A stretch of DNA of 64,000 nucleotides from Vulcanimicrobiales bacterium. Its GTDB lineage: Bacteria > Vulcanimicrobiota > Vulcanimicrobiia > Vulcanimicrobiales > Vulcanimicrobiaceae. The stretch lies in the NCBI GenBank assembly GCA_038231455.1, contig JBBRLI010000001.1, positions 96,001 to 160,000 on the forward strand. Direction: 5' to 3'. Position 1 is the stretch's first letter; each line of letters starts with the position of its first letter. The position numbers were made by a program, and so were the translations under genes. The notes below the pieces were generated by a model. It saw nothing but the letters and a program-made list of their open reading frames with translations, was not told the origin of the DNA and made no database searches. Of this stretch, positions 57,545 to 64,000 are shown piece by piece.

Positions 57545-58312
57545 CTAGACGGGGAGACTTTCGGCGTCAGCGACGGCGGCGTGCGGGTCGTTCATCCACG
57601 CGCGGACGTTGGTTTCGAACGCACGAAGATCGCCGTTGGTGAAATACCGTACGGTCCCATTGCCCGGCCTCGTGCAGAGGGCAGCGGCAACGTGCGCTTG
57701 AGCGATCGCCGGATCGACGATCTCCGTCTGTGCCGGTAACAACGCGCGAAAATGCTCGGCGAGCAGCGGATAGTGGGTGCATCCCAAAACGAGCGCATCG
57801 ATCGGCCCCGCGATCTGCGCGATCGCCTCGGCGACCGCGGCGCGAGCTTGCGGCGTTGCGGCGTCGCCGCGCTCGACCAGCGGCACGAGCGCGGGCGCGG
57901 CGATCTCTTGCACGTGAATGTCCGGCGCGTGGAGCGCGATCGTTCGGGCATAGGCGCCGCTACGCACTGTCGCTTGCGTCGCGATCACAGCGACGCGCCG
58001 GTGTGCGGTCCGCGCCAGTGCTCGCGCGGCGTTGTCGATCAAATCGAGTACGCGTTCGCGCGTCGTCGGCCAACCGTACTTTCCGCCGATCGCGCACGAC
58101 GTGTTGCACGCCATCACGATTCCGCCGACGGGAAAGCGTTCGAGAAAGGCGAGGTTCTCACCGAGCAGATGGACCAGATCCGCATCGGTGCGTTCGCCGT
58201 ACGGGACGTGCGCCTGATCGGCGAAGTACACGAGATCTTCGCTGGGAGCGAGCGCACGAACGGCCTTGAGGACGGTCAATCCGCCAAGGCCCGAATCGAA
58301 GAGTCCGAGCAC
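57545..58312 (-). CDS. murI: Glutamate racemase
   Basis: FDSGLGGLTV, PYG, ACNTS, LGCTHY. Confidence 0.96.
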   Translation of the reverse strand: MLGLFDSGLGGLTVLKAVRALAPSEDLVYFADQAHVPYGERTDADLVHLLGENLAFLERFPVGGIVMACNTSCAIGGKYGWPTTRERVLDLIDNAARALARTAHRRVAVIATQATVRSGAYARTIALHAPDIHVQEIAAPALVPLVERGDAATPQARAAVAEAIAQIAGPIDALVLGCTHYPLLAEHFRALLPAQTEIVDPAIAQAHVAAALCTRPGNGTVRYFTNGDLRAFETNVRAWMNDPHAAVADAESLPV

Positions 58313-60348
58313 TAGCGCTCGCCCGCCATTGACGCGGTCGCGGGCTGCGATCGCGTAAAGTCGCGCACGCCGTTTGCGATACCCTGTGCTACGTGTTGCA
58401 AAAACTCGGGCGAGCGCATGAGCGATGCGTCTCCGGGGTTGGAGATGAATCCCGTTTCGACAAGGATCGCAGGCATCGTGGTCTTTCGCGTTACGTACAG
58501 GCGGCCGGCGCGGGCGCCGTCGTCTTTGGTTCCAAGCAGCGGGATGAGGTCGCGCTGCACCGCATCGGCGAGCGGTTTATCGATGCCTTTCGAGTAGAAC
58601 GTCATCGTTCCGTTCAGATCGGCCCGCGGGAAGCTATTGATGTGCACGCTGATGAAGAGGCGGGCATTTTGCACGTTCGCAACGTCGACGCGGGCTTGAA
58701 GTTCTTCGGCGTCGGCGGCATTTGCACGCGCCACATCGACATCCGTCGAGCGCGTCATTTTTACCGTCCACCCTTGCGCGACGAGCAGCGCGCGTAAGCG
58801 CAGCGCAATATCGAGCGTGAGCGTCTTTTCGACCAGGCCATTGCCAAGCGACCCGGGGTCGCTGCCGCCATGACCCGGATCGATCACGATGAGTTTGGAG
58901 CCATTCGGCGGCACCGCATACTTCCACGGCGAGCTCGAGCCGAGCGGAGTTGGGTACGCAGACGCTGCCGGCGCGAACGTTTCGCCGGGATACGGCGATC
59001 CGAAACCGCTTGCGGGTGCGGTCGGCGGCACGCCGATGGCACCGCTACCGAATCGCGCTCCTTCGCCGAACGCGCTGCCGTCGATTGCAAGCGAAAGGCC
59101 GCCGTCGAGCGGGACGATTTCGACGCGCCGGTCACCTTTGAGCGTCACGGCGACGCGCACGATCGGAATTGGCGATGTCGCGACTTGGCGTGCGCGAACC
59201 GCATCCACGGCAGCAACGTTCGGGCGTTCGTCGCGACCCGACCCGCTGAGTTGTGCGTTTTTGAAATCGATGTACCAGCGATTATCAGCGAGGCGGTGCC
59301 ACTCGTACGATACCGGTCCGCTCGCCGTTACGCGCACGCTCACCCCATCACCGAGCGGATCGACACCGATGTCGGTGATGGTCACGGGTGCGTTCACCGT
59401 CTCCGGAGTCGCGGTTGCAGCGGGGGCCGATCCTTCGCTCGGCGCGTACGTTGCGGCGGCATTCGGCCCCGGCGTCGGCGCGAGCGTTGCCGCGGCGCGC
59501 GGCGTCCGCACCGGAATCGGGAACGTTTGCGCGATTGCTGGCTGCGTGATTCCCGGCGTGAACCACTCGGGGATTGCCGCACCGAGCGCCGTCCCCGACG
59601 GACCGAAGGCAACGGCGAATTCATTACTCGAGGGCGCGATTGCAAGGCCATGCGCAACACCGGCTGGGCCCTCGATCGTGACCGTGGTTGTGGCGTTTCT
59701 CGGGTTGCCGCTCACCAGCACATCGACTTCGTTTACGGCCCCGCCGTTCAGGCGGCGGGCCTGCGTGAGGGTCGATGCAACGCCGGAGAACGCGATCGTC
59801 ACGCGCTCGGGTGACTCGGAGATCTTCGTATACTTGAGCGGGATCGCGCCCCGGAACGTTAGCGTCGTGCGCTTCGCCTCGGTGCGTACGTCGAGACCGC
59901 CGAGCTGCGGCTGCAAGACCGTCTCGCTACCGATTTTCACCGGCTCGACATACAGTGCGCGCGCGAGTGCGAGAAACGGCACGTAGAGTTCGCCAGCCTC
60001 GAGATACGGCGCAAATGGAGCGCGCGTCGTCACGCCCCCGCCCGCGATCTGTGCATCGCCGATCGTGAGCGTGATCGTGCGCCTATCCGCCGTCGTGACG
60101 ATCGCATAACTTTGACCGGGCGCAAATGCAAGCGTTGCTCCGAGCTTGGCCAAGAATCGCTCGAAGCCCGCATCGTGAATCGGAGCGGCGACATCGCCTT
60201 TGACGGCTTGCGATCGCTCGAGAATCAGCTTGGTGCCGACGAACCAGAAGGCGCTCGCTTCTTGGGCACGCAGCGGCGCCGGCACGCAGAACGCGGCTAG
60301 CGTCAGCGCGAGAAACGCGCTACCAGCTCGAGCGCGAGAGCGGCTCAT
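58312..60348 (-). CDS. N-acetylmuramoyl-L-alanine amidase (N-terminal stalk/AMIN-like domains + Amidase_3)
   Basis: Signal peptide; IDPGHGG.D, EK..L, MTR, SVHIN, ILVETGFISN. Confidence 0.92.
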   Translation of the reverse strand: MSRSRARAGSAFLALTLAAFCVPAPLRAQEASAFWFVGTKLILERSQAVKGDVAAPIHDAGFERFLAKLGATLAFAPGQSYAIVTTADRRTITLTIGDAQIAGGGVTTRAPFAPYLEAGELYVPFLALARALYVEPVKIGSETVLQPQLGGLDVRTEAKRTTLTFRGAIPLKYTKISESPERVTIAFSGVASTLTQARRLNGGAVNEVDVLVSGNPRNATTTVTIEGPAGVAHGLAIAPSSNEFAVAFGPSGTALGAAIPEWFTPGITQPAIAQTFPIPVRTPRAAATLAPTPGPNAAATYAPSEGSAPAATATPETVNAPVTITDIGVDPLGDGVSVRVTASGPVSYEWHRLADNRWYIDFKNAQLSGSGRDERPNVAAVDAVRARQVATSPIPIVRVAVTLKGDRRVEIVPLDGGLSLAIDGSAFGEGARFGSGAIGVPPTAPASGFGSPYPGETFAPAASAYPTPLGSSSPWKYAVPPNGSKLIVIDPGHGGSDPGSLGNGLVEKTLTLDIALRLRALLVAQGWTVKMTRSTDVDVARANAADAEELQARVDVANVQNARLFISVHINSFPRADLNGTMTFYSKGIDKPLADAVQRDLIPLLGTKDDGARAGRLYVTRKTTMPAILVETGFISNPGDASLMRSPEFLQHVAQGIANGVRDFTRSQPATASMAGER

Positions 60349-60817
60349 CAAGCTCAAAGTGGCCTCCGGGAAGTGTTGCGACTTTGGCTCCGCCGATCGT
60401 GATGCGCACGGCTTTGATATTCGGCAGAGCGGTCAGGGTCCAAACCAGCGACTTGAATTCACCGTTTTCAGCAAAGCCGCCGGCAGCCGATGAATCGATC
60501 TCTTTTGAGATATCGACATGGATCGTCGAACCCTCAACGTCGACGGCATTCAGGTGCGTTCCAACGGGAAAACGAATCGCATCGACGCCCGGAGCGGGAC
60601 CCGCGAGCGCTTGGGTTGCGGTGTAAAACGCGACGCTCTTGAGATCGCGCGCAGAGCCGAGGCTCACTCGCCACGGCACCTCGCTTTGCCCGTCAAGTTT
60701 GGTGTAGTAGACGGTCACGGTATCGCCCGCTGCCGGCCGCTGACCGAACCACCACCACGCCGCATAGGCGGCGCCCGTAAAGAGTGCGATAAAAATGAGG
60801 ATTCGCAGCGATCTCAC
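60320..60817 (-). CDS. GerMN-domain protein
   Basis: N-terminal TM; L.GP...FP.GT.L, SLVWTLT.LP.I..V.I.I.G. Confidence 0.85.
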   Translation of the reverse strand: MRSLRILIFIALFTGAAYAAWWWFGQRPAAGDTVTVYYTKLDGQSEVPWRVSLGSARDLKSVAFYTATQALAGPAPGVDAIRFPVGTHLNAVDVEGSTIHVDISKEIDSSAAGGFAENGEFKSLVWTLTALPNIKAVRITIGGAKVATLPGGHFELDEPLSRSSW

Positions 60818-60878
60818 GGGATGAGAACTTCGGAGAAATGACGAGAACAGCCTGTGGACTTATCGGTGGGGGGCGTGA

Positions 60879-62432
60879 ATGGATAACGGGCCGGGATTTT
60901 TGCCGCACGGAATGTGTTTTCTGTGGGATCCGCGCGTACTCTCGCTCCATGTGATCTCCGATGCGCTTACGGCGATCGCATATTTTTCGATCCCGGTCGT
61001 CTTGATCTGGTTCGCGCGCACGCGCGGCGACCTGCCTTTCCGCAGCGTCTTTATCATGTTTGGCCTGTTCATCGTTGCATGCGGAACGACGCACGTGCTT
61101 TCGATTTGGACGATTTGGCACCCGGACTACTGGCTCTCGGGGTGGGTGAAAGCGCTCACGGCAACGGCCTCGGTCGCGACCGCCATCATCTTAGTGCCAC
61201 TGGTCCCGCGAGCTCTCAAGCTGCGCAGTCCACGTGAACTCGATCAACTCAACATCGCACTGCAACGCTCGCTCGATGAAAAAGACGAACTGCTCGTGCG
61301 TTACCGGCGCGAGCACTTCATCGCCGACACCTTTCAAAGCGCGTCGCTTGCCGCGCATCTGCCGACGGTCGATGGAATCACGTTCGATGCCGTGTATCAA
61401 GCCGGAACGAGCGATCTCGAAGTCGGCGGCGACTGGTACGACGCCTTTCGCTTAGGCGACGGACGGATCGTGATCTCGATCGGCGACGTCGCGGGAAGCG
61501 GCCTCGGCGCGGCGGTGACGATGGGCAGGATGCGTCAAGCGATTCGCGTCGCCGCGCAAATTCAAGTCGAACCCGGCGCCATTCTCACCGCCGCCGATCG
61601 CGCGCTGCGTGCCGAAGAACCCGACCGCATCGTCACGGCGTTTGTGGGCGTGATCGACAACGTGGATGGCACGCTTGCGTATGCATCTGCCGGGCATCCG
61701 GCGCCGCTGTTGCGCCGAGCCGACGGCACGATCGTCGAATTGACGCTCGGTTCGTTGCCGCTCGGACTACGCGAACGCTCGGATGAGGCAAGCGCCACGG
61801 TCGCGCTCGAACCCGGTTCGATTATCGTGCTCTATACCGACGGGTTAACGGAGTCGACGCGCGACGTCATCGAGGGCGAACGCCGCTTACGGGAAGCGCT
61901 CGAGATTCAAGCGGCGGCCGTCTCGGCAAATCCGGCGCGCGAAATTCACGATCTCGTCCTGCATGACGGCGCGCACGATGACGTTGCAATCCTTACGGTG
62001 CGTATTGGAACGACGGCCGTACCCTCCGCGCGGTGGACGCTCGACGTCCGCGATGCCGCCGCCGCAAGCGCGATTCGCGTTGCGATCGTCGCCGAACTCG
62101 TAACGGCCGGAGCGAATACGGAGAGCGCAATGGCAGCCGAACTCGTTTTTAGTGAACTCATCGGCAACGTCGTGCGTCACGCGCCGGGCCGCGCCGAGAT
62201 TCGTCTCGATTGGTCGGGGGGTGCGCCGGTGTTGCACGTGCTCGATGAGGGTCCTGGCTTCCAATACGTCGGCTCACTGCCCAAAGATCTCCTGAGCGAG
62301 AGCGGTCGCGGACTGTTTCTCGTCGGCGCGCTTTCCGATGGGATTTTGGTGTTGCGACGGCCGGGCATCGGGAGCCACGCGCGGGCTATTTTAGCGTTCG
62401 TCAAACGGCCGCTGCGCGCGATGCAAGCGTAA
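60879..62432 (+). CDS. Membrane sensor: ETR1-like ethylene-binding domain + SpoIIE/PP2C phosphatase + RsbW-like HATPase
   Basis: SD..AIAYFSIP and FIVACGTTH in three TM helices; GGDWYD, GDVAG, AGHP, YTDGL, HDD; SELIGNVVRH, DEGPGF, ESGRGL. Confidence 0.9.
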   Translation: MDNGPGFLPHGMCFLWDPRVLSLHVISDALTAIAYFSIPVVLIWFARTRGDLPFRSVFIMFGLFIVACGTTHVLSIWTIWHPDYWLSGWVKALTATASVATAIILVPLVPRALKLRSPRELDQLNIALQRSLDEKDELLVRYRREHFIADTFQSASLAAHLPTVDGITFDAVYQAGTSDLEVGGDWYDAFRLGDGRIVISIGDVAGSGLGAAVTMGRMRQAIRVAAQIQVEPGAILTAADRALRAEEPDRIVTAFVGVIDNVDGTLAYASAGHPAPLLRRADGTIVELTLGSLPLGLRERSDEASATVALEPGSIIVLYTDGLTESTRDVIEGERRLREALEIQAAAVSANPAREIHDLVLHDGAHDDVAILTVRIGTTAVPSARWTLDVRDAAAASAIRVAIVAELVTAGANTESAMAAELVFSELIGNVVRHAPGRAEIRLDWSGGAPVLHVLDEGPGFQYVGSLPKDLLSESGRGLFLVGALSDGILVLRRPGIGSHARAILAFVKRPLRAMQA

Positions 62433-62473
62433 GGGACGAAGGGACGCGCGTGCGCGCGTCCTAATCGCCCGCC

Positions 62474-64000
62474 ATGAGAACTCGCATCGTTTCGATCGCG
62501 CTTGCCTGCGCATTTGCCGTCGCGATTCCGGTCGCCGCACAGGCGCGAATGACTGGGTTCACCGTGTCCTCGCGGACCGATGTGCTCGATGGCAAGCCCT
62601 TTGCCGTCGGCCCATACGAAAAGATCGTTGGGACGGCGACGTTTGCCGACGATCCGAGCGACCCGCACGACCGAGGCGTCGTCGATCTTGGGCTCGCGCC
62701 GCGCGATGCAAACGGCCGTGTCGCCTCGCACGCCGACGTGTATATGCTTGCGCCGAAGAATGGTGAGAACGGCAACGGAAACGTACTGCTCGAGGTCAAT
62801 AATCGCGGCGGCAAAGGGATGCTGCGCTTCTTCAACCACGCCAAAAGCTCGCCGGATCCAACAACGGCGCTTGAGTTCGGCGATACATTCTTACTCGATG
62901 CGGGTTACACGTTGGTATGGGTAGGATGGCAGTGGGACGTGCCCCAGCAGCCCGGCAACATGCGCCTTTACGCGCCGGTCGCAACCGAGCGCGGCAAATC
63001 CATCATGGGCCTCGTCCGCTCGGACTTTACGACAACGAAGCCGATCACCGAACAACCACTCTCGCATCGCGATCATATCGCCTACCCGGTCGCGGATGAA
63101 AACGACCCAGCAAACGTGCTCACGATGCGTGAGGGCGTCGCAAAGCCGCGCACCATTATCCCGCATAGCGCCTGGCGTTTGAACGCCGATCGCACCGCGA
63201 TCGTTGGCAATTTTGTCCCCGGCCACATTTACGAATTCGTTTACCGCGCGAAAGACCCGGTCGTCGATGGCTTGGGGATTACAGCCGTGCGTGATTTCAT
63301 CTCGTATCTGAAATACGACCCGACCGCAATCAAGCACGTTCAGCGCGCCTACGGTTTCGGCATCTCGCAGAGCGGCCGGTTTTTGCGTGACATGCTCTAT
63401 CAAGGGTTCAACACCGATGAGTCCGATCGGCTCGTGTTCGACGGCGTGCTCGCGCACGTCGGCGGCGCGGGCCGCGGCGCGTTCAATCTGCGTTTCGGCC
63501 AGCCTTCACGCGACGGCCCAAGCTTCTCGTCGTTCTTTTATCCAGTCGATCTCTTTCCGTTCACCGACGTCGACGAGAGCGATCCGCTCACCAATGCGGT
63601 CGATGGGTTGCTCACGCATTCGCATGCCGATGCGACCAAAGTCAAAGTGATGTTCACGCACACATCGTACGAATATTACGGACGCGCGGCATCGCTGATG
63701 CACACTTCATCCGACGGATTGCGCGACGTCGAACCGGGCCCAAACGCACGCATCTACTTCTTCTCCGGCGGCATGCATTACGTACCGGCGCTTGGATCGC
63801 GCGATCCGCTCGCGCAGCAGCTGCAAACGCCGAGCGACCACACGTTCGCGATGAAAGCGCTGCTCGTGGATCTCGACCAATGGGTGCGCAACGGAACGGC
63901 GCCGCCTCCGAGCAGCGTGCCGAAAATTGCAAACGGTACGCTCGTGCCGCTCGATAAAATTGCGTGGCCGGCAATTCCGGGCTTCGCGCATACGCCGACC
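62474..64000 (+). CDS. Secreted alpha/beta-hydrolase domain protein (partial, runs off window end)
   Basis: MRTRIVSIALACAFAVAIPVAAQA signal; GPYEKI, EVNNRG, GWQWDV, GISQSGRFL nucleophile elbow; absent from the ORF track because no stop lies in the window. Confidence 0.85.
   Translation, partial: MRTRIVSIALACAFAVAIPVAAQARMTGFTVSSRTDVLDGKPFAVGPYEKIVGTATFADDPSDPHDRGVVDLGLAPRDANGRVASHADVYMLAPKNGENGNGNVLLEVNNRGGKGMLRFFNHAKSSPDPTTALEFGDTFLLDAGYTLVWVGWQWDVPQQPGNMRLYAPVATERGKSIMGLVRSDFTTTKPITEQPLSHRDHIAYPVADENDPANVLTMREGVAKPRTIIPHSAWRLNADRTAIVGNFVPGHIYEFVYRAKDPVVDGLGITAVRDFISYLKYDPTAIKHVQRAYGFGISQSGRFLRDMLYQGFNTDESDRLVFDGVLAHVGGAGRGAFNLRFGQPSRDGPSFSSFFYPVDLFPFTDVDESDPLTNAVDGLLTHSHADATKVKVMFTHTSYEYYGRAASLMHTSSDGLRDVEPGPNARIYFFSGGMHYVPALGSRDPLAQQLQTPSDHTFAMKALLVDLDQWVRNGTAPPPSSVPKIANGTLVPLDKIAWPAIPGFAHTPT

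Follow-up and report, generated by a model that had tools for sequence, protein, structure and literature searches.

Gene and domain architecture

The DNA analysed here is a stretch of 64,000 nucleotides from a Vulcanimicrobiales bacterium of the uncultured phylum Eremiobacterota (GenBank assembly GCA_038231455.1, contig JBBRLI010000001.1, positions 96,001 to 160,000 of the forward strand), which we call the window. Near its end lies a gene for a protein of 517 amino acids (aa), in which an N-terminal ethylene-binding domain (EBD) is followed by a serine phosphatase domain and an RsbW-like kinase domain. The features of this sensor gene are listed in window coordinates, with the basis of each assignment in brackets.

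60879..62432, + strand: EBD-PP2C-HATPase_c_2 sensor gene (P0001), 517 aa, stop codon included (list of open reading frames (ORFs), translation, Pfam, AlphaFold2 (AF2) model)
60903..60926, + strand: N-terminal motif PHGxCxLW with the conserved Cys13, residues 9-16, predicted to be extracytoplasmic (family conservation, no Lys/Arg)
60930..61220, + strand: EBD with transmembrane (TM) helices 18-48, 55-80 and 84-114 (Pfam ETR1_N, AF2, hydropathy, alignment with AzoEtr1)
61230..61346, + strand: linker helix, residues 118-156, predicted parallel dimeric coiled coil (AF2 monomer and dimer models)
61377..62006, + strand: PPM/PP2C (SpoIIE-type) serine phosphatase domain, residues 167-376 (Pfam, invariant motifs, structure matches)
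62028..62393, + strand: RsbW-like GHKL ATPase / serine kinase domain (HATPase_c_2), residues 384-505 (Pfam, invariant motifs, Foldseek)

All three domains scored above their Pfam cut-offs. ETR1_N (PF25487) matched residues 20-115 on profile positions 2-97 of 97 with 137.1 bits (cut-off 27, E 2.4e-40), SpoIIE (PF07228) matched residues 194-376 with 141.9 bits (E 3.1e-41), and HATPase_c_2 (PF13581) matched residues 393-494 with 39.7 bits (cut-off 27.4, E 5.9e-10). Within the last match HATPase_c (PF02518) reached 22 bits, under its cut-off of 26.4. Pfam found no GAF, PAS, HisKA or receiver domain in the 517-aa protein at E <= 1, so that it lacks the GAF/PAS and histidine-kinase output of a canonical ethylene receptor of the ETR1/SynEtr1/AzoEtr1 type. 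The original prediction of an EBD joined to SpoIIE/PP2C and an RsbW-like ATPase, with neither GAF nor HisKA, is borne out by these profiles, and the architecture is real and well supported in silico. The E value of ETR1_N and the invariance of the site residues ruled out a chance or degenerate EBD-like segment. Nor is the protein a histidine kinase that was truncated or frameshifted: its frame is continuous, the family length is conserved at about 495-554 aa and both C-terminal domains are complete. The sensor protein gave the sole ETR1_N match of the whole genome in a profile search.

The catalytic motifs of both output enzymes were intact. In an alignment of 80 family sequences the PP2C motifs G183-G184-D185-W186, D188, G202-D203, T320-D321-G322 and D367-D368 were invariant; the four Asp-containing motifs supply the metal ligands in the PPM/PP2C family. 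The kinase domain carried equally invariant N, G1 and G2 boxes of the GHKL ATP-binding site (E426 and N430; D456 and G458; G476-R477-G478). The best solved relative was Mycobacterium tuberculosis Rv1364c (PDB 3KE6, a crystal structure of its RsbU and RsbW domains), which was matched by phmmer over residues 154-435 (E 1.1e-22), with the GGDWYD, GDVAG, TDG and DDV motifs aligned onto the same motifs of Rv1364c, and by Foldseek over 370 columns that covered PP2C and HATPase_c_2 together (E 3.3e-21). The next solved relatives were Pseudomonas aeruginosa RssB, SpoIIE and SiaA-PP2C. In Rv1364c the PP2C phosphatase and the RsbW-like kinase are fused in the same order as in the 517-aa protein. However, Rv1364c is soluble, with an N-terminal PAS sensor and a C-terminal STAS domain of its own (PMC12143880), whereas the 517-aa protein has a membrane EBD and neither PAS nor STAS. 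The kinase domain is RsbW-like in its fold and motifs and is not an RsbW orthologue. The putative substrate of the phosphatase would be a phosphorylated STAS protein.

A scan of positions 60500-62700 for promoters and terminators returned one promoter-like site, intragenic and on the wrong strand, and one terminator-like site within the coding region, which is no excess over shuffled sequences. No RNA dataset containing the sensor gene was listed; the sole listed dataset was a DNA run, which may be the source sample.

Ligand site and modularity of the EBD

As a reference for the ligand site we used AzoEtr1 of Azospirillum brasilense Sp7, and the offset to ETR1 was checked indirectly, by published numbering and the AzoEtr1 alignment. 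When the EBD (residues 1-125) was searched against a plasmid collection with tblastn, it matched Azospirillum megaplasmids in 7 of 21 records. The match on Sp7 plasmid p1 was an ORF of 525 aa with a small ORF overlapping its end. Since AzoEtr1 was published as a 525-aa protein with a response-regulator gene overlapping its stop (PMC11819568), we took this ORF to be AzoEtr1. A position count along it placed D35, C75, H79 and K98 at the published AzoEtr1 positions, which the same paper aligned with ETR1 D25, C65, H69 and K91. The fragment AzoEtr1[1-130] was shown by experiment to bind 14C-ethylene saturably (PMC11819568).

BLASTP aligned sensor residues 1-125 to AzoEtr1 1-130 with 58 identities in 119 positions (49%) and no gaps. 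The translated sensor domain contained D28, Y35, I38, P39, I65, C68, H72 and K91, each of them identical in AzoEtr1, with D28, C68, H72 and K91 on D35, C75, H79 and K98. This confirms the seven residues that had been named in the original prediction, and the helix 3 match claimed there is confirmed by the position of K91 on AzoEtr1 K98. The gapless offset of +3 to ETR1 was right for helices 1 and 2, where the spacings of 40 residues from Asp to Cys and of 4 from Cys to His are common to ETR1, AzoEtr1 and the 517-aa protein, and gives way to an offset of 0 in helix 3 (K91 = K91). The His to Lys spacing is 19 in the 517-aa protein and AzoEtr1 and 22 in ETR1. It follows from the helix 3 offset that the TM2-TM3 loop is three residues shorter than in ETR1, and it is as long as that of AzoEtr1.

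The seven residues had also been called necessary for ethylene binding. For ETR1 Y32 this follows the original prediction and, reportedly, Wang et al. 2006. ETR1 I35, P36, I62, C65 and H69 are published as essential to ethylene binding, and D25 as a copper contact (PMC6586836). Judged by its sequence, the N-terminal part of the protein genuinely belongs to the family of copper-dependent ethylene-binding domains, and the 517-aa protein would be expected to bind ethylene and copper.

ETR1, SynEtr1 (Slr1212) and AzoEtr1 have the same three-helix EBD, with the Asp/Tyr/Ile/Pro/Ile/Cys/His set and the Lys of helix 3; for the 517-aa protein a homodimer is predicted as well. In these receptors the EBD is followed by GAF or PAS/cyanobacteriochrome domains and a histidine kinase, which signals to response regulators or CTR1 (PMC11819568, PMC6682694), whereas in the 517-aa protein, for which ethylene binding is a prediction, it is followed by PP2C and HATPase_c_2. 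The statement that characterised receptors are kinase-type holds for the literature read, and covers ETR1, SynEtr1, GeiEtr1/2 (predicted) and AzoEtr1 (PMC11819568, PMC6682694).

The conservation of the site was counted in an alignment of 176 EBDs from the searches, 81 of them from three-domain proteins and 83 from proteins with other outputs, with gapped rows left out of each count. Among the three-domain members we found D28 in 77/77, Y35 in 77/77, I38 in 73/77, P39 in 59/77, I65 in 77/78, C68 in 77/78, H72 in 79/79 and K91 in 80/81. EBDs with other outputs kept the same site residues at 82/83 to 83/83. The N-terminal residues P9, H10, G11, C13 and W16 were conserved to at least 90% in the 80-sequence family alignment and to 80-95% or more among the 176 EBDs. 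Cyanobacterial EBD proteins also have one Cys in their N-terminal region, which may serve dimerisation (PMC6682694).

Position 39, which corresponds to ETR1 P36, was the most variable of the site: 16 of the 77 three-domain members have Ala there, and the 517-aa protein has Pro. Replacement of ETR1 P36 by Ala reportedly abolished ethylene binding in the study of Wang et al. 2006, and for this reason the Ala39 subgroup may have altered or lost ligand binding. Its members are P0028, P0031, P0032, P0035-P0039, P0041, P0043-P0045, P0064, P0071, P0075 and P0082, and eight of the 16 also have G69A. In another family member, P0076, Gly replaces the copper-ligand Cys.

These counts bear on the nature of the signal. 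The same protein with the same output could respond to copper availability, to the redox state, or to another small Cu(I)-binding ligand, such as CO, acetylene or other alkenes, through its Cys/His Cu(I) site. What can be read from the sequence is just the metal ligands and their surroundings; however, the full set of seven ETR1-defined residues is in place and nearly invariant, and not only the Cys and His. The 16 Ala39 members suggest that the pocket can be retuned, and the sample is labelled as a metagenome of sediment instead of plant tissue. Few EBDs have had their ligand specificity measured (PMC11819568, PMC6682694), yet the nearest tested relative, AzoEtr1 at 49% identity, binds ethylene, and no other physiological ligand was shown for any EBD-family member in the literature read. 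We consider a signal other than ethylene unlikely.

The EBD is combined with many outputs. The EBD query (residues 1-125) matched 493 proteins of 284-905 aa at E <= 0.001 among 643 candidates. The 120 matches listed contained 30 proteins with EBD, PP2C and HATPase_c_2, 7 with EBD and PP2C only, 17 with GGDEF and 66 that were mostly histidine or hybrid kinases, many of named cyanobacteria. Fusions of the EBD to EAL and to HWE kinase outputs also occurred among the matches listed. Our EBD was 58-73% identical to the EBDs of the other proteins in this top 120, including those of cyanobacterial histidine kinases. The 72 longer EBD proteins listed (906-2585 aa) consisted of 2 methyl-accepting chemotaxis proteins (MCP), 6 GGDEF proteins and otherwise kinases; neither SpoIIE nor STAS was found in them. 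The EBD thus moves freely between proteins as a module, and its coupling to something else than a histidine kinase is nothing exceptional. In P0214 (1379 aa) and P0225 (1263 aa) the EBD is followed by PAS domains and then by a methyl-accepting chemotaxis domain (PF00015), an order which suggests that these EBD-PAS-MCP proteins could be ethylene taxis receptors.

A tree of the EBDs (172 rows, 129 columns) required 13 architecture changes, against a mean of 72.3 after shuffling, which shows strong clustering of the architectures. Its well-supported branches force at least two changes for the three-domain type and at least three for the PP2C-only type, and neither forms a single clade. With 129 columns the tree is weak, and we therefore do not infer from it which event came first.

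Proteins of about 400 aa with EBD and PP2C and without the kinase were seen in Nostoc sp., Rhizonema sp. and metagenomes (P0206-P0210, P0191, P0196). They are annotated just as 'PP2C family protein-serine/threonine phosphatase', and the Nostoc sp. protein WP_334918987.1 is an example. Like the 517-aa protein this example has an EBD (about 60% identical), then a helix and a SpoIIE-type PP2C; unlike it, it has no HATPase_c_2, and the overall identity is 37% over 398 columns with 12% gaps, mostly past the EBD. Because of this low overall identity and the position of the gaps, a different PP2C subfamily was probably recruited in Nostoc. The sequences suggest that the EBD-PP2C proteins of Eremiobacterota, with the kinase, and of Nostocales, without it, arose by separate fusions. 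A culturable Nostoc could be the easiest setting in which to test ethylene-to-phosphatase signalling.

A search with the whole protein matched 3121 proteins at E <= 0.001 among 8000 candidates. Among the 120 matches listed (clusters at 90% identity) 83 had all three domains, at 45-82% identity and mostly with 495-554 aa, and one had EBD and SpoIIE only. The other 36 had PP2C and HATPase_c_2 only, placed behind PAS, GAF, CHASE3 or MASE4 sensors; their identity to the query was 49-57% over 68-84% of its length, a level that many true orthologues do not exceed. Since these non-EBD proteins of Eremiobacterota share the output at such identity while their sensors differ, the two-enzyme output is a stock module of the lineage onto which the EBD was grafted. 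The family members are named 'serine phosphatase RsbU / anti-sigma regulatory factor' in the databases, and ethylene appears in none of these names.

The closest C-terminal modules in named genome records came from Eremiobacterota/Vulcanimicrobiota, with Baltobacteraceae nearest and Cybelea, Elarobacter and Lustribacter also represented. This search of genome records was seeded by three PP2C motifs, and 78 of the 80 loci kept match only from query residue 85 on. In the remaining two the match begins at residue 66 (L075) or at residue 41 with 29% identity (L087) and thus extends partly into the EBD, and no clear orthologue came from the 80 loci. ETR1_N scored over its cut-off in 28 of 401 sampled genomes of the phylum, and the only further genome from this genus, which is 92% complete, had no match. 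Among the ORFs of 29 loci with ETR1_N, 8 of 29 were three-domain proteins by phmmer, and 2 more had EBD and PP2C with a C-terminal extension; one of these two, P0084, was scored as HATPase_c_2 by Pfam. The locus of the window was classified alongside them as a check. Among the sampled genomes, all 10 orthologues came from the same family-level group as the genome of the window.

We found no publication in which an EBD is paired with SpoIIE, RsbU or PP2C in bacteria, within a search that did not extend to the reviews Lacey & Binder 2016, Carlew et al. 2020 and Papon & Binder 2019 and their supplements, which may list such an architecture. The literature found on PP2C and ethylene receptors concerned plants only, and that on Eremiobacterota and ethylene contained nothing about a receptor by title or abstract. 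The protein is, however, not a one-off: the architecture search gave at least 83 clusters, the EBD is also carried by GGDEF, EAL, MCP, HWE kinase and PP2C-alone proteins, and PP2C with HATPase_c_2 is found in 11 of the 18 SpoIIE proteins of the genome. Sensor and output both belong to known kinds, and that sensors are swapped among kinases, cyclases and phosphatases has by now come to be expected as a principle.

Topology, linker and predicted dimer

The AF2 monomer model reached a mean predicted local distance difference test score (pLDDT) of 88.1 and a predicted template modelling score (pTM) of 0.72, with helices at 18-48, 55-80 and 84-114 where hydropathy peaks are present. The N-terminus and loop 2 contain no Lys or Arg, loop 1 has 3 of them in all and the segment after TM3 has 4. 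Hydropathy and the positive-inside rule predict an N-out/C-in topology, in which everything past residue 115 would be cytoplasmic. The linker was modelled by AF2 as one continuous helix of 39 residues (118-156).

A homodimer was predicted for residues 1-380 in three runs with three controls. The interface score ipSAE was 0.65 (runs 0.64-0.66), against 0.00 for the best control, the contacts agreed between runs to at least 94%, and pLDDT was at least 81. For comparison, 20 of 30 proteins with solved structures as pairs of one chain came up to the ipSAE mark, and so did 1 of 23 whose solved structures are single chains. The modelled interface had three parts. TM1 faced TM3 of the other chain, with K91 against residues 23-31; the linkers touched every 3-4 residues from 117 to 156 (residues 124-125, 127-128, 131-132, 134-135, 138-139, 141-142, 145-149, 151-153 and 155-156); and the PP2C domains met through helices 208-228 and 232-246. 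The short coiled coil of the original prediction corresponds to this 39-residue helix, whose contacts in the dimer model are periodic.

This predicted geometry is that proposed as general for PPM phosphatases. Baral et al. proposed that bacterial PPM proteins in general have sensors that dimerise, helical linkers that cross and PP2C domains that pair via alpha1/alpha2, and this arrangement was used to explain how the same sensors occur on histidine kinases, GGDEF cyclases and phosphatases (PMC12143880). Bacillus subtilis RsbU and RsbP have a sensor/dimerisation domain, a crossing helical linker and a PP2C dimer via alpha1/alpha2, and the same elements are found in the predicted interface of the 517-aa protein. 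However, RsbU is switched by the partner protein RsbT and RsbP by RsbQ, and both lack a fused kinase. In the 517-aa protein the direct switch would be a membrane domain that binds a ligand, and phosphatase and opposing kinase share one chain. From the model, signalling of the dimer would pass through the linker.

Because the predicted interface passes through TM1 and TM3, the N-terminal domain might be thought of mainly as a membrane anchor and dimerisation module, with the input coming from a partner protein, the state of the membrane or the fused kinase sensing ATP. B. subtilis RsbU is indeed activated by a partner protein on its linker and not by a ligand (PMC12143880), and ligand binding by our EBD is a prediction from the sequence. 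An anchor, however, would hold neither D28, Y35, I65, C68, H72 and K91 at 77/77 to 80/81 nor the EBD at 58-73% identity to EBDs on quite different outputs. This makes a role as a mere anchor very improbable.

Partner-switching network and possible target

A profile search found no STAS match in the window or elsewhere on its contig (C1), in agreement with the claim that the window holds no STAS gene, and the predicted target would be encoded in another part of the genome. In the whole genome there are 18 SpoIIE matches, of which 11 are joined to HATPase_c_2 in the same order and 1 in reverse order, and the EBD is on just 1 of these 18 proteins. There are 13 STAS matches, 12 over the cut-off, and one of these 12 lies in a frame of 565 aa. 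A STAS gene lies directly downstream of 2 of the 11 fused paralogues (on contigs C13 and C8), and a row of rsbV-like (with a 'DSTG' site), rsbW-like and sigma-70-family genes is found at C6:8118-9259. For a genome of 3.7 Mb this partner-switching set is unusually large; 23 sigma-70 region-2 matches were seen too, and the set is spread over contigs C2, C3, C5, C8, C9, C10, C13 and others.

Our preferred interpretation, to which we give a probability of roughly 0.5, is a homodimeric ethylene-type sensor that acts as a bifunctional STAS kinase/phosphatase with its target elsewhere in the genome. In the inner membrane, the three-helix EBD of the homodimer would bind ethylene or a similar ligand at a Cu(I) site. 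Binding would alter the packing or the register of the parallel coiled-coil linker, and this change would set the alpha1/alpha2 'switch' of the cytoplasmic PP2C phosphatase. The fused RsbW-type serine kinase would run the reverse reaction, so that the protein would work in both directions on a STAS protein of the anti-anti-sigma type and feed one extra signal into the large partner-switching network of the organism. The stronger form, in which ethylene or a related Cu(I)-binding gas directly flips the single-chain STAS kinase/phosphatase and this would be the first gas- or hormone-gated partner-switching sensor, is tentative and we hold it to be rather less probable.

Several observations weigh against the preferred interpretation, besides the Ala39 members and the reported effect of that substitution. 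Ligand, metal, dimer and substrate are all predicted, from sequence and models. The kinase domain is divergent: in NCBIfam it scored 11.2 bits for PRK04069 (RsbW) against a cut-off of 145 and 38.4 bits for RsbA_anti_sig against 210, and the domain alone matched no PDB sequence at E <= 0.1, with two chance-level matches at E 0.5 and 0.6. A simple heptad count of the linker gave no single dominant register, and the dimer score may reflect resemblance to solved PPM dimers such as RssB. The neighbourhood of the gene is not conserved, the EBD gene alone being common to all 11 loci (our own and 10 orthologues), and a STAS gene stands beside the EBD gene in only 1 of the 10 orthologous loci (1/10 scanned neighbours was a STAS gene). 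Finally, rice ethylene receptors were described as Ca2+-permeable channels in the title of a 2026 paper (PMC13261662), so EBD proteins may act otherwise.

In the absence of a conserved neighbourhood the partner is not readable from gene context. The single orthologous locus with a STAS gene is L143 of genome G376, where a STAS gene of 121 aa (L143:9708-10073, + strand) starts 4 bases before the end of the EBD orthologue. Its nearest relative in the genome of the window is C8:33633-34004, which is 42% identical over 112 aa (E 8e-20) and shares its 'YFDSR' site. Since C8:33633-34004 is the closest to the L143 STAS protein, it is a first candidate for the substrate, with low confidence. It sits downstream of a different PP2C-kinase paralogue of 890 aa.

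A sigma factor would be the putative final target, and nothing ties the sensor to the rsbV-rsbW-sigma operon of C6. The sensor and the enzymes could thus work as proposed while the STAS target controls biofilm or polysaccharide genes, second-messenger enzymes or a transporter. The L143 STAS protein resembles C8:33633-34004 and not the rsbV-like protein of the C6 row, to which it is only 24.7% identical. A precedent is SypE, an RsbW-like kinase with PP2C that acts on the STAS protein SypA. SypE regulates biofilm (PMC3610818). On the other hand, the genome does have a canonical rsbV-rsbW-sigma row, and its 18 phosphatases need targets. We regard a target other than a sigma factor as a minority possibility, and keep to a STAS kinase/phosphatase with an anti-anti-sigma type substrate as the preferred interpretation.

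The passage of the ligand signal from the EBD to the output was called still elusive (PMC6586836). Here one helix connects the EBD with a PP2C phosphatase and the kinase that opposes it. A small STAS protein would serve as the substrate in assays of both activities, and this makes the protein a compact non-plant test bed for EBD signalling. If the stronger form of the interpretation is true, this could be the first protein to allow in vitro measurement of how a signal leaves an EBD, the output being a simple enzymatic reaction, and ethylene perception by Ser/Thr phosphorylation would be a recurrent bacterial solution beside the histidine-kinase route. The idea of an 'exchangeable toolkit', with the same sensors on histidine-kinase, GGDEF and PPM outputs (PMC12143880), would be extended to a membrane gas sensor. 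These results suggest that uncultured Eremiobacterota may read ethylene or a similar gas through an unusually large partner-switching network (18 phosphatases and 12 STAS proteins here).

The genes next to the sensor gene are unrelated ones, as follows (window coordinates).

62474-64000, continuing to about C1:160457, + strand: Abhydrolase_10 protein, about 660 aa, signal-like segment at the N-terminus
60320-60817, - strand: Germane (GerMN) domain protein
58312-60357, - strand: AMIN and Amidase_3 N-acetylmuramoyl-L-alanine amidase, 681 aa, start overlapping the end of the preceding gene
57545-58312, - strand: Asp/Glu racemase (glutamate-racemase-like)

The Abhydrolase_10 gene follows the sensor gene after 42 bases on the same strand and may be co-transcribed with it; in the 11 loci it is not kept beside the orthologues. 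The three genes on the - strand form a divergent cell-wall cluster upstream (57545-60817). At the orthologous locus L151 of genome G238, a stand-alone HATPase_c_2 (RsbW-like) gene of 152 aa lies 41 bases upstream of the orthologue (L151:1119-1577, + strand). The genome of the window also has a stressosome-like gene row at C2:111136-115034.

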